The notes under the pieces were generated by a model that saw only the letters and a list, made by a program, of their open reading frames with translations, was not told the origin of the DNA and did no database searches. Below, piece by piece: positions 1 through 4,507 of a DNA stretch of 4,507 nucleotides. The position numbers and the translations under genes were made by a program. Positions within the stretch are counted from its first letter, which is position 1, and each line of letters opens with the position of its first letter. The stretch is from a virus (taxonomy: Duplodnaviria > Heunggongvirae > Uroviricota > Caudoviricetes): IMG/VR virus record IMGVR_UViG_2706794673_000010, one strand, 5' to 3'.

Positions 1-50
1 GGGAATATCTCCCCGGCAGCCTTCAGGGAAAAATATCATCAGATGGCTGC

Positions 51-404
51 TTAAAAAAAGAACAAATGGTAGTGTCCGCTATTGCCAGTACACCTCAATT
101 GCTCTGCGGCTTCGCTCAGAGCTGGCGTATGTTCCCGGCCTACTGATTCACACAGGTAATCAACGAAACCGGACACCAGTTTTCGTTCGCGAGGCGTGAT
201 CGCCCCACCGACCGGAGTCCAGTAATCGAAACCCAGTTGCAGGAGTTTGAAAAAACGCTTGTGGAATGCGTAGTTACACACACGCTTAAAGTCTGCGTGT
301 ATCCACTCACCTATTTTGATTTGATGCAGAAAATCGCAACTCTCCGGCGTCGCCGGGAGAAGTAATCCGGAAGAGGTTTGTTTGACCAGTTGTATATGTG
401 CCAT
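51..404 (-). CDS. hypothetical protein, 117 aa from ATG at 404..402 (ORF track extends it to a TTG at 446)
   Basis: Open frame ending TAA at 53..51. The ATG at 404 is preceded by GGAG about 7 nt upstream, whereas the TTG at 446 overlaps the upstream stop and has no such site. Product begins MAHIQLVKQTSS; no family recognised. Confidence 0.55.
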   Translation of the reverse strand: MAHIQLVKQTSSGLLLPATPESCDFLHQIKIGEWIHADFKRVCNYAFHKRFFKLLQLGFDYWTPVGGAITPRERKLVSGFVDYLCESVGREHTPALSEAAEQLRCTGNSGHYHLFFF

Positions 405-442
405 CGGCTTTCTCCGGTGGCACGGTGTTACACAGCAGGAGT

Positions 443-730
443 TCAATCCTGCTCAAGATTGTAGATGAGTTTATTCTTCAGCAAAAGCAGAAAACCAGCC
501 TTAAAACCAATCTCTTTCAAAACCCGTAATGATGTGACAAATTCGTCCTCACGCAAAATAAAACCGTCCGTCAGAAGTCCATTACAAAAATAAAATAACA
601 CAGCACCGCTCTTCCTTTGTTGAGATTGCAAACATCTAATGCGGCAATGGCTGACAATCGCTCCATTCTCAACGCGCACAGCATAGAGGCCATTTTCACT
701 AAAAATTTCACGCAATTCTTCGATTTTCAT
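443..730 (-). CDS. hypothetical protein, 95 aa
   Basis: ATG at 730..728 preceded by GGAAGGA about 9 nt upstream; stop TGA at 445..443. Same strand as, and 38 nt upstream of, the 51..404 gene, suggesting a two-gene operon. No family recognised. Confidence 0.55.
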   Translation of the reverse strand: MKIEELREIFSENGLYAVRVENGAIVSHCRIRCLQSQQRKSGAVLFYFCNGLLTDGFILREDEFVTSLRVLKEIGFKAGFLLLLKNKLIYNLEQD

Positions 731-935: not shown

Positions 936-1277
936 TCAGAGGTGGGCGGGGATGGGATCAGCTCCCCGCCCGGTCACTCTTACTTCCTGGNNNNNNNNNN
1001 NNNNNNNNNNNNNNNNNNNNNNNNNNNNNNNNNNNNNNNNNNNNNNNNNNNNNNNNNNNNNNNNNNNNNNNNNNNNNNNNNNNNNNNNNNNNNNNNNNNN
1101 NNNNNNNNNNNNNNNNNNNNNNNNNNNNNNNNNNNNNNNNNNNNNNNNNNNNNNNNNNNNNNNNNNNNNNNNNNNNNNNNNNNNNNNNNNNNNNNNNNNN
1201 NNNNNNNNNNNNNNNNNNNNNNNNNNNNNNNNNNNNNNNNNNNNNNNNNNNNNNNTGAAGCAGATAGCCTCAAGCAC
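936..1277 (-). CDS. hypothetical protein, mostly masked (only about 7 N-terminal and 17 C-terminal codons visible)
   Basis: ORF-track frame with GTG at 1277 and TGA at 938..936; visible C-terminus QEVRVTGRGADPIPAHL. The masked length (265 nt) is not a multiple of 3, so frame continuity across it is an assumption. Start is uncertain: a well-placed GAGGT + ATG at 1287..1285 hits a stop after 5 codons. Confidence 0.3.
   Translation of the reverse strand: MLEAICFXXXXXXXXXXXXXXXXXXXXXXXXXXXXXXXXXXXXXXXXXXXXXXXXXXXXXXXXXXXXXXXXXXXXXXXXXXXXXXXXXXXXXXXXXQEVRVTGRGADPIPAHL
944..971. repeat. GC-rich perfect inverted repeat (9-bp arms, 10-nt spacer)
   Basis: GGGCGGGGA (944..952) and TCCCCGCCC (963..971) are exact reverse complements around TGGGATCAGC. 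Sits in the last codons of the masked minus-strand ORF. Confidence 0.6.
991..1255. other. run of N (265 nt): masked sequence or assembly gap
   Basis: Contiguous n characters; nothing can be inferred inside. Confidence 1.
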
Positions 1278-1336: not shown

Positions 1337-2023
1337 TCACTCCTTCTCTTCTTTACCGTAGTGGAGTTGACCAATTTTGATAAGAGGGCGTCCCTGAGAT
1401 TTGCGGTGTAGATTGGTATCGCGCAGAGAATACACACAGCCACAATATTCCTGCTGATAGAATTTTTCGCGCTTGCTGATTTCAATCATACGGGACGAGC
1501 CGCCCTGCTTGCGCCAGTTATAATCCCAGTACACCATGCCCGGATAATGCGCGACGGCTCGCCGCCCACAGTCGTTAACCTGCTGCATATTTTTCCAGCG
1601 TGAAATGCCCAGTGAACTGCTGATCACACTGAAACCATTTTCAGCGGCGTACAGCGCTGTCCGCTCAAAACGCATGTCAAAACACATGGTGCAACGGATC
1701 CCTCGTTCGGGCTCCCATTCCATTCCTTTGGCTCGTTCAAACCAGTTGTCTGTGTCGTAATCAGCATCAATAAACGGCACGCCGTGTTGTTCAGCAAAGC
1801 GAATATTCTCATCCTTACGAATTAAATACTCTTTCTGAGGATGAATGTTCGGGTTGTAGAAAAAGATGGTGTAGTCGATTCCCGAGGCCTGAAGCGCCTC
1901 CATCACCTCACCGGAACATGGAGCACAGCAAGAGTGCAGTAGTAGTTTGTTTGCCCCGTTTGGGAGCTCCAATTTGGGCCGTTTGAAATCAGCAACTGTC
2001 ATAAATATGTTTATTGGGGTCAT
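1337..2023 (-). CDS. queH: DUF208 / QueH-like protein (epoxyqueuosine reductase family, Fe-S), 228 aa
   Basis: Uninterrupted 228-codon frame with TGA at 1339..1337. N-terminal [14 protein letters not shown] matches the cysteine motif I recall for DUF208/QueH, with further Cys at RCTMCF and YCGCVY. No clear Shine-Dalgarno before the ATG at 2023 or the alternative ATG at 2002 (MTVADF). Confidence 0.75.
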
Positions 2024-3021: not shown

Positions 3022-3699
3022 CTACTTAACAACCCTCGAATGGCTAACATTCGGACGCCAGCTCTCCCAGTTAAAATTCACCCAGCGNNNNNNNNNNNNN
3101 NNNNNNNNNNNNNNNNNNNNNNNNNNNNNNNNNNNNNNNNNNNNNNNNNNNNNNNNNNNNNNNNNNNNNNNNNNNNNNNNNNNNNNNNNNNNNNNNNNNN
3201 NNNNNNNNNNNNNNNNNNNNNNNNNNNNNNNNNNNNNNNNNNNNNNNNNNNNNNNNNNNNNNNNNNNNNNNNNNNNNNNNNNNNNNNNNNNNNNNNNNNN
3301 NNNNNNNNNNNNNNNNNNNNNNNNNNNNNNNNNNNNGATAGCTGCCGCTAAGTGATTCTTCCCGGTACCAGGTTTTCCGCTGAACGCAAAATTTGTACAC
3401 CCGGTCATCAGTTCATCGGCGATGGATTTCGCCTGGCTTAACGCGTATCGCTGGCCGTCGTTCTGCACCTGGTAATTCGCAAACGAGCATTTACGGTGCA
3501 ACGGCTGGATGCCTGAGCGATTCAGAATTTTTTCCACCCGCAACTGGCGATTCAGGCGGTTGATCTCCTCGCTACGTTTCTGGCCTTCAGCAAGTTGCCA
3601 CTCGCGCCACTCCGCTACCGTTCTGAATGGGGCGGTTACATGTGGCGGGGTCAGTCGGCGGATGCGTTCCAGAACGCCGCCTGTCGCAATATTTTTCAT
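3022..3699 (-). CDS. DnaC-like replicative helicase loader (phage P/DnaC family AAA+ ATPase); central part masked
   Basis: N-terminus MKNIATGGV...RSGIQPLHRKCSFANYQV and Walker A FSGKPGTGKNHLAAAI resemble E. coli DnaC as I recall it; C-terminus RWVNFNWESWR resembles the DnaC tail. The 249-nt N-run is a multiple of 3, so the frame is maintained. ATG at 3699, 6 nt after the upstream stop, preceded by AGGGGG. Confidence 0.85.
   Translation of the reverse strand: MKNIATGGVLERIRRLTPPHVTAPFRTVAEWREWQLAEGQKRSEEINRLNRQLRVEKILNRSGIQPLHRKCSFANYQVQNDGQRYALSQAKSIADELMTGCTNFAFSGKPGTGKNHLAAAIXXXXXXXXXXXXXXXXXXXXXXXXXXXXXXXXXXXXXXXXXXXXXXXXXXXXXXXXXXXXXXXXXXXXXXXXXXXXXXXXXXXRWVNFNWESWRPNVSHSRVVK
3088..3336. 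other. run of N (249 nt): masked sequence or assembly gap inside the DnaC-like gene
   Basis: Contiguous n characters. Confidence 1.
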
Positions 3700-4053
3700 G
3701 GTCCGTTACCCCCTGAAGCCTGGCGGGATCGCACTGTCCGGCAACGAGACGGTGTTAACCTGTCGGAGCAACGTCTCAGGCCGAACACCTTTCGGCGCGA
3801 ACAGGCCCTGGTATTCATTGGCGATGCTGTGTCGAATCACCTGCTCAGGTGTAAAACCCTGCTGACGGAATTTTTCCAGTTCCCGTATCGCCCCGTTAGC
3901 GCCCTGCTCCGTTCGAATCGGTTTTCGCAATGCCTGTCTGAACCGGACCCACTCATGCCAGAGTGTTTCCGGCAACCAATCGGGCAGCTCAATAGCCTCC
4001 GGCTCGAATTTTTTAGACGCTCGTTTTTGGCGAGGGGGAGATCAGTATTTAGA

Positions 4054-4074
4054 TCTTCCTCTTCCTCTTCCTCT
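4054..4074. repeat. hexanucleotide tandem repeat (TCTTCC)3 plus TCT, encoding a poly-Glu tract on the minus strand
   Basis: Plus strand tcttcctcttcctcttcctct; minus-strand codons GAG GAA x3 give EEEEEE in the initiator linker. Confidence 0.9.
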
Positions 4075-4180
4075 GGTAACGCTTTTTGATCCGTTTGTGT
4101 AACGCTGGCAGCGTTACCTTTTCGTTTCAGTTCGCGTATTTTTGTTACTCGCTCGTTTGTAACCGCCCGTTTTTTTTAGA
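4075..4180. other. candidate phage replication origin inside the initiator gene (palindrome, iteron-like repeats, T-rich tract)
   Basis: 19-bp perfect palindrome GTAACGCTG-G-CAGCGTTAC at 4099..4117, with a further GGTAACGC at 4075..4082. CGTTT-containing motifs start at 4092, 4123 and 4154 (31-bp spacing). T-rich stretch 4120..4190 includes T8. Lambdoid origins are known to lie within the initiator gene. Confidence 0.3.
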
Positions 4181-4382
4181 GCTTTTTCCGTTATGACGTT
4201 CAAAGTTAGGTAGAGAAAGCCCTCCGTCATTTTCGACCAGCCATCCAACCTGAATTAACGCATCAGCAAAACCAGACATAAAAGTGATGCGATCTATTGC
4301 ACTTTTTGTAACGCCGCGAGCGTTACAATCTGCATTACCGTCTATCATTTGTTGATCCGCCCATGCCCAGAAGCGAATAACC

Positions 4383-4507
4383 TGAGGTAGCCTGAGTTTA
4401 ACGGACACTCCTTCCTGAAATAGAATGGCATCAGAAGGAGCTAATAATGAGCAGAAAAACCCAACGTTACTCTAAAGAGTTCAAAGCCGAAGCTGTCAGA
4501 ACGGTTC
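4383..4507 (+). mobile_element. left end of an IS3-family insertion sequence (IS600-like), running off the window
   Basis: Begins TGAGGTAGCCTGAGTTTAACGGACACTCC, as expected for an IS3-family inverted repeat (TG...); the orfA start lies 64 nt inside. The boundary is estimated to within a few bp. Confidence 0.7.
4447..4507 (+). CDS. IS3-family transposase OrfA, N-terminal 20 codons (partial)
   Basis: AAGGAG 7 nt upstream of the ATG; translation MSRKTQRYSKEFKAEAVRTV matches my recollection of the IS600 OrfA N-terminus. Confidence 0.7.
   Translation, partial: MSRKTQRYSKEFKAEAVRTV

Follow-up and report, generated by a model that had tools for sequence, protein, structure and literature searches.

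Shigella genomes undergo reductive evolution, in which pseudogenes arise through the expansion of insertion sequences and through small indels. Runs of adenine have also been described as places where the reading frame is changed during expression: programmed -1 frameshift sites include A_AAA_AAG in E. coli dnaX and those of the IS3-family orfAB genes, and slippage of RNA polymerase on long A runs is established, for example in Shigella mxiE. The locus described here belongs with the ydaU-ydaV module of Rac, whose order (a cro-like gene, ydaT, ydaU, the dnaC-like ydaV and a DUF977 gene) is shared with the window, as we call the whole 4,507-nucleotide stretch of DNA that was analysed. In its intact form (FDAARGOS_944, COL60J and phage Rac), the ydaU-family gene is 789 nt long, encodes 262 aa and sits between ydaT and ydaV, and the order of ydaU and ydaV is the same in the E. 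coli, phage Rac and S. sonnei loci. The ydaU region is present in 1421 of 5426 complete E. coli genomes (90-98% identity by megablast), and E. coli genomes annotate it as a single CDS followed by ydaV. A 2023 paper counted ydaUVW among the genes of undetermined function (PMC11014345), and our literature search on YdaU found no functional study.

Set against these systems, the minus-strand region 3706..4382 of the window is best read as a pseudogene of a replication initiator (so named at the level of annotation), lying in what remains of a Rac-like lambdoid prophage in S. sonnei and carrying three independent inactivating mutations. We assign this reading a probability of about 0.93. The features on which it draws are the following:

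3022..3699, minus strand: ydaV, gene of the DnaC/IstB-like ATPase partner (PF01695/PF00308), partly N-masked, 7 nt past the ydaU stop codon.
3706..4382, minus strand: ydaU-family (PHROG 2509) remnant, nt 105-789 of the 789-nt gene, from alignment, PHROG matches and conceptual repair.
3706..4032, minus strand: segment 3, in the third frame, with the C-terminal helical domain and the DnaT-like tail PDSAIPPGFRG; stop codon at 3706..3708.
4009..4014, minus strand: A6 run without a lesion, unchanged relative to intact homologues, encoding the Lys-Lys of ...ASKKFEPE...
4033..4039, minus strand: lesion 2, the single TCCCCCT left by a 10-bp deletion, seen in the alignment with intact genes; second frameshift.
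4040..4169, minus strand: segment 2, in the second frame, a disordered basic/acidic linker (codons ~106-149).
4054..4074, minus strand: 3.5 copies of the hexanucleotide GGAAGA/AGGAAG, which code for the Glu tract within the linker.
4170..4177, minus strand: lesion 1, an A8 homopolymer that is A6 in intact genes (AAA AAA, Lys104-Lys105); expansion by two.
4178..4382, minus strand: segment 1, in the frame starting at 4408 (codons ~36-103), with most of the conserved N-terminal domain.
4380..4382, minus strand: one of the two GGT copies (coding strand) of the 3-bp target-site duplication that IS600 produced on inserting after nt 107 of the gene.
4383..4507, plus strand: left end of IS600 (IS3 family), with terminal inverted repeat TGAGGTAGCC... 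and the orfA ATG at 4448.

The remnant preserves 86% of a prophage replication-initiator gene of the ydaU family (again an annotation-level name), namely its 3' part. As the original prediction had proposed, its protein-like reading steps through three frames, and the pieces are different parts of one family: the two longest ORFs in the window match PHROG 2509 ('replication initiation protein') at profile positions 34-102 (9e-37) and 193-277, and an intact homologue matches it over positions 1-277 (E 2.2e-89). Membership of the family is thus established by full-length profile similarity together with the identity of the repaired gene (see below), and the remnant lies directly upstream of the ATPase gene ydaV. 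In place of an uninterrupted ORF, the window holds three frames, an internal stop nine codons past the A8 run and an IS600 insertion. The remnant is therefore a pseudogene of the ydaU family and no working member of it.

What the intact protein does can be read from names: one RefSeq record labels it 'phage replication initiator YdaU family protein', and some phage records 'DNA replication protein O'. Scanned against Pfam and NCBIfam, the intact protein was assigned to no family, the sole match being a weak one to the C-terminal tail of DnaT. An AF2 model built from 26 homologues (mean pLDDT 66.9) predicts two confident domains, an N-terminal one (~11-97) and a helical C-terminal one (~160-240), separated by a disordered linker (98-159, pLDDT <50), and Foldseek comparison of this model with the PDB gave nothing significant (best E 0.62, to winged-helix-like parts of methyltransferases). 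Because the Pfam/NCBIfam, PDB-profile and fold searches all lacked significant matches, we take the label 'initiator' from the PHROG and RefSeq names only, and the protein would be an initiator by annotation. The C-terminal 124 residues are 81% identical to a 285-aa DUF1376 (PF07120) protein whose gene neighbours ydaT and ydaV in a different Rac-like region found in S. sonnei assemblies, whereas the N-terminal domain of the window gene belongs to a 262-aa subtype without a Pfam model and is not DUF1376. Separately, the last ~19 codons (3706..3765, minus strand) encode a family tail, ...VN.VS.PD..IPPGFRG, that is similar to the very C-terminal end of DnaT, a primosomal protein of the host. This is a weak match (E 0.06-0.19 in the PDB profile search, with 0.06 for 2ru8 and 6aep, and 0.002-0.006 for NCBIfam PRK02854), and the tail could be a short shared peptide that docks to a replisome-loading partner.

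Read along the coding strand, the first frame runs ...QVIRFWAWADQQMIDGNADCNARGVTKSAIDRITFMSGFADALIQVGWLVENDGGLSLPNFERHNGKSSKK and stops after NGRLQTSE, the second gives RAVTNERVTKIRELKRKGNAASVTQTDQKALPEEEEEEDLNTDLPL, and the third gives ...PPRQKRASKKFEPEAIELPDWLPETLWHEWV...PPGFRG followed by the stop codon. All three frames are traversed because the two indels (+2 and -10) shift the frame equally modulo 3. The middle segment (4040..4169) lacks its own start codon (ATG, GTG or TTG) and is therefore no separate gene; together with homologues that are single ORFs, this disposes of the possibility, raised in the original prediction, that two genuinely separate genes lie here. Conceptual repair, in which IS600 was excised with one copy of GGT, the A8 run was shortened to A6 and the 10 bp were put back, yielded a 789-nt ORF that differs from that of E. 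coli FDAARGOS_944 by one synonymous change (788/789 nt, 262/262 aa). The repaired window sequence is thus identical in protein to an intact E. coli member of the ydaU-family initiators, and what distinguishes the window copy is its inactivation by IS600 and by the +2 and -10 lesions.

Both homopolymers to which the frame changes had been assigned, A8 at 4170..4177 and A6 at 4009..4014, are present on the coding strand. The first of them is indeed the site of a frameshift, leading to a stop nine codons on, at 4145..4147, but the ancestral length of A9 that had been proposed for it does not hold: the three intact genes that we aligned (from E. coli and phage Rac) all carry A6, so that the window has two extra A's and not one missing. 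Across Enterobacterales the family consists of single ORFs of ~255-315 aa, in which K104, R106 and A107, flanking the run, are invariant. A8 was absent from the 5426 complete E. coli genomes, where the best matches to a 71-nt probe (97.2%) represent the A6 state. A9 at this site was seen in sister pseudogene alleles only; since these alleles exist, A9 may have been the state from which the A8 of the S. sonnei pseudogene lineage directly arose.

The second lesion, in contrast, is not at the A6 run to which it had been attributed. Intact E. coli homologues have the same run (AAAAAA, against AAACAA in alleles of the Rac type), and the supposed ancestral A7 was never seen there. The frame is instead changed ~20 nt upstream, in the coding direction, by the loss of 10 bp (written as TCCCCCTAAA or, with the same outcome, as AAATCCCCCT) between two 7-bp TCCCCCT direct repeats, which reduces TCCCCCTAAATCCCCCT to the one TCCCCCT at 4033..4039 (intact genes read GATCTCCCCCTAAATCCCCCTCGCC, the window GATCTCCCCCTCGCC). 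The deletion is absent from complete E. coli genomes: an 80-nt probe gave 549 full-length matches there, each of them with the 10-nt gap. From the window by itself this lesion could not have been placed, since neither frame is closed between 4041 and 3837. We also considered an A7 run combined with the 10-bp deletion (net -9) as a compensated in-frame allele, and rejected it: stops interrupt the intervening frame, and an allele of this kind was not seen. According to the AF2 model, both indels lie in the predicted disordered linker.

The third lesion is the IS insertion, which had been recognized in the original prediction and is confirmed here: homology to the ydaU gene ends at 4382, and from 4383 onward the sequence is that of an element whose full length is 99.8% identical to RefSeq-annotated IS600. 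Near-identity, the terminal inverted repeats TGAGG...CCTCA and a 3-bp duplication all identify it as IS600. It splits the gene at codon 36, leaving the 5' 107 nt beyond the IS and outside the window. In S. sonnei locus L006, these 107 nt are found on the far side of a 1.26-kb IS600, with GGT duplicated at both junctions (called by comparing the two L006 junctions with the uninterrupted gene).

IS600 also marks the other border of the window, which is flanked by two IS600 copy ends in the same orientation (1..98 and 4383..4507), a composite-transposon-like arrangement that encloses ydaU', ydaV, DUF977, queH, hok and rem. The left-end copy cuts a DUF1367 gene (ORF 51..446), of which profile positions 1-102 of 198 remain. 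In several S. sonnei drafts (L010, L013-L015), the sequence upstream of IS600 is another Rac-like module (ydaT, the 285-aa DUF1376 ydaU and a truncated ydaV), the 5' end of the window's gene is absent there, and one of them (L013) has the remnant twice; this structure reflects either an IS600-mediated rearrangement or assembly joins across IS copies. Within the prophage remnant, 1337..2023 (minus strand) encodes a full-length QueH, an epoxyqueuosine reductase (PF02677, E 2e-65), and thus a queuosine-pathway enzyme carried by a lambdoid prophage. Two runs of N are shorter than the corresponding S. sonnei sequence (991..1255, 265 vs 291 nt; 3088..3336, 249 vs 318 nt), and coordinates and frames across these masks are therefore not length-preserving. 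The first masks a hok/gef-type toxin gene (PF01848, L006 9312..9524) and the second the central part of ydaV.

Over all unmasked bases, the window is 100% identical to two S. sonnei assemblies, and ten of ten S. sonnei assemblies, ranging from drafts with contigs of 55-985 kb up to contigs of ~4.8 Mb, carry the A8 run, the 10-bp deletion and the unchanged A6 run. In addition, the exact 87-aa product of ORF 4145..4408, which has an IS-derived N-terminus and a frameshifted tail and so requires both the IS600 junction and the A8 frameshift, is encoded on 492 contigs in 481 collection blocks, with S. sonnei names such as FORC11_0721. Because the ten assemblies agree and the frameshifted product recurs on 492 contigs, the lesions are inherited in S. 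sonnei and are no miscalls; their inheritance, like their absence from intact relatives, is a direct observation.

To place these lesions among other alleles, we tabulated the length of the A run at site 1 in three collections:

GTDB representative genomes, 2 loci: A6 2, A7 0, A8 0, A9 0.
Metagenome contigs, 16 loci: A6 15, A7 1, A8 0, A9 0.
IMG/VR contigs, 75 loci: A6 61, A7 4, A8 8, A9 2.

Pattern scans found the 10-bp deletion in every A8 or A9 allele and in no A6 or A7 allele. Four IMG/VR alleles combine the deletion with A8 (L059, L108) or A9 (L073, L104) and have no IS600 at nt 107. Over 1046 nt, three of them (L059, L108 and L104) show 1-2 substitutions relative to the window, variable-repeat lengths aside, and the fourth (L073) is equally close over the 5' part of the remnant and diverges downstream (95.6% over 726 nt). 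Since these alleles bear the deletion and the long run without the insertion, the indels predate this IS600, an order of events that is directly visible in the alleles. Another S. sonnei-labelled allele (L016-L018) has A9, no IS at nt 107 and a separate IS600 after ~nt 411. Intact relatives being A6, the run within the S. sonnei lineage changed either from A6 to A8 to A9 or from A6 to A9 to A8. The A7 alleles belong to three or more unrelated backgrounds, although errors may account for some of these calls, and the run is therefore a recurrent slippage site.

The same gene has decayed elsewhere by other routes. S. flexneri SFBU1023 (L004, ~6850..6870) and the E. coli-labelled ECMA0423 (L005) retain A6 and carry an 11-bp deletion of their own (CTAACGGGGCG), between GGGCG repeats and accompanied by a shortened hexamer repeat; this deletion and the separate IS600 of L016-L018 are cases of parallel decay. 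Within S. sonnei the hexamer repeat is itself polymorphic, an in-frame VNTR: the window has ~3 copies and other S. sonnei assemblies have 6 or 7, and the IMG/VR alleles range from 2 to 8.

We propose that replication slippage would have lengthened the coding A6 (Lys-Lys) to A8, a change of +2, that slipped-strand mispairing between the 7-bp TCCCCCT direct repeats would have removed the 10 bp; IS600 later transposed into codon 36, leaving its 3-bp duplication. Slippage is here the probable mutational mechanism, and the decay would reflect relaxed selection, the prophage being defective and its Shigella genome rich in IS elements. The idea of real slippage mutations in a decaying prophage, one of the options of the original prediction, therefore stands insofar as the mutations are real and inherited, and fails in its detail of two single-A losses, site 2 being a 10-bp deletion. 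The locus agrees with what is described for Shigella reductive evolution in having several independent lesions in one dispensable prophage gene, in the IS600 with its 3-bp duplication, in the fixation of the lesions across the examined S. sonnei assemblies, and in the parallel but different lesions of S. flexneri; it differs in nothing substantive.

Among the other readings, an improbable one sees in the Lys-Lys A run a slippage hot spot that repeatedly silences prophage replication, as a crude on/off switch, where RNA-polymerase slippage on A8 or A9 might still give some in-frame transcript. In a stricter form, to which we attach a very low probability, the run would be a contingency tract that reversibly switches the prophage initiator off and on by phase variation. 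Run lengths of A6, A7, A8 and A9 all occur naturally, A7 with three or more separate origins on unrelated backgrounds, and A8 and A9 coexist in near-identical alleles, as such a switch would have it; however, 61 of 75 IMG/VR and 15 of 16 metagenome alleles are A6, a length that is short for a phase-variation tract, some of the A7 calls may be sequencing errors, and the 10-bp deletion, which is irreversible, accompanies A8 and A9 without exception, so that changes in run length there have no effect on coding.

Two independent single-A losses from an ancestral A9 and A7, whether by slippage or by under-calling, are barely credible. Adding one A to each run does open a single ORF, as had been claimed, and A9 exists at site 1 in sister pseudogene alleles. 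The resulting protein, however, is non-native over a patch of 8-9 residues, reading LPLAKNERLKKF where the native sequence is LPLNPPRQKRASKKF, and has one extra Lys. In intact genes, moreover, site 1 is A6 and not A9, the second run is A6 (Lys-Lys) with A7 never seen, and the true second lesion is the 10-bp deletion.

Recoding, in which programmed -1 frameshifting or transcriptional slippage at the A runs would yield a full-length initiator from the broken frames, is excluded for practical purposes, since the homologues are single ORFs. The two runs share with dnaX, orfAB and mxiE the A-rich X_XXY_YYZ heptamers, A_AAA_AAC at A8 and A_AAA_AAT at A6 in the incoming frame (a pattern that any A8 run satisfies trivially), and long A runs can provoke RNA polymerase slippage. 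Unlike those systems, the window has a frame change that is not conserved, no structure at the right spacing and a real second lesion that is off the slippery site. The four full-length DNA homologues that we aligned with the window and 20 full-length protein homologues are single ORFs, the homologous run being A6 and the frame unbroken, and the broken arrangement is limited to one recently decayed lineage. No stimulatory RNA structure was found 5-9 nt downstream of the runs, where the folds are unremarkable (z -1.86 and -1.81; 10-11 of 200 shuffles fold as well), and the sole strong hairpin, which begins 52 nt past the A8 run, is too distant to stimulate; the original prediction had already judged programmed frameshifting unlikely and seen no stimulatory structure, rightly on both counts. 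Furthermore, IS600 parts the remnant from its start codon and promoter, and a shift at the A6 run would not restore the native protein.

Homopolymer miscalling in one assembly, the under-calling option of the original prediction, is refuted and left with a negligible probability: homopolymers are error-prone and a few contigs from IMG/VR and metagenomes have single A7 variants that could be such errors, but the identical A8 run and 10-bp deletion are found in ten of ten independent S. sonnei assemblies of very different contiguity and not confined to one assembly or platform, the frameshift-dependent product recurs on hundreds of contigs, and a 10-bp deletion is not an error of the homopolymer type.

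Apart from its lesions, the gene contains perfect 19-bp palindromes, GTAACGC-N5-GCGTTAC, at 4099..4117 and 4308..4326 of the window, and a third copy lies 14 nt upstream of the ydaU ATG (L001 1366..1384). There are thus two in the window and three in the intact locus, spaced by 192 and 207 bp, where shuffles predict 0. The two intragenic copies encode (N)A-x-x-VT motifs that are multiplied in some family members, and the motif residues (N55/A56, N124/V128/T129) are invariant or nearly so. Because this holds even in the disordered linker, the conservation suggests a constraint at the DNA level, and the palindromes are candidate initiator-binding sites or may form an origin inside the initiator gene. 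The lambda ori lies in the O gene, a candidate likeness to the ydaU palindromes within their own putative initiator gene. In the window's lineage, IS600 now parts the first palindrome from the other two.

For the reading of single sequences, the locus holds a lesson: with two frames open (here 4041..3837), one sequence cannot place the point of frame change, and suspicion falls easily, and wrongly, on a homopolymer close by. It was the comparison with intact homologues that relocated the second lesion, now a 10-bp deletion, and reversed the first from the loss of an A to a gain. The A8/A9 run, the hexamer (3-8 copies) and the two alternative IS600 sites are possible markers for strain typing in S. 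sonnei. The two residual ORFs have already been deposited as hypothetical proteins (e.g., S. sonnei FORC11_0720 and FORC11_0721), and the gene is an ordinary pseudogene, of a kind already known, in an IS-bracketed S. sonnei prophage remnant. Its biological weight is small, that of a further prophage gene lost in the decay of the Shigella genome.
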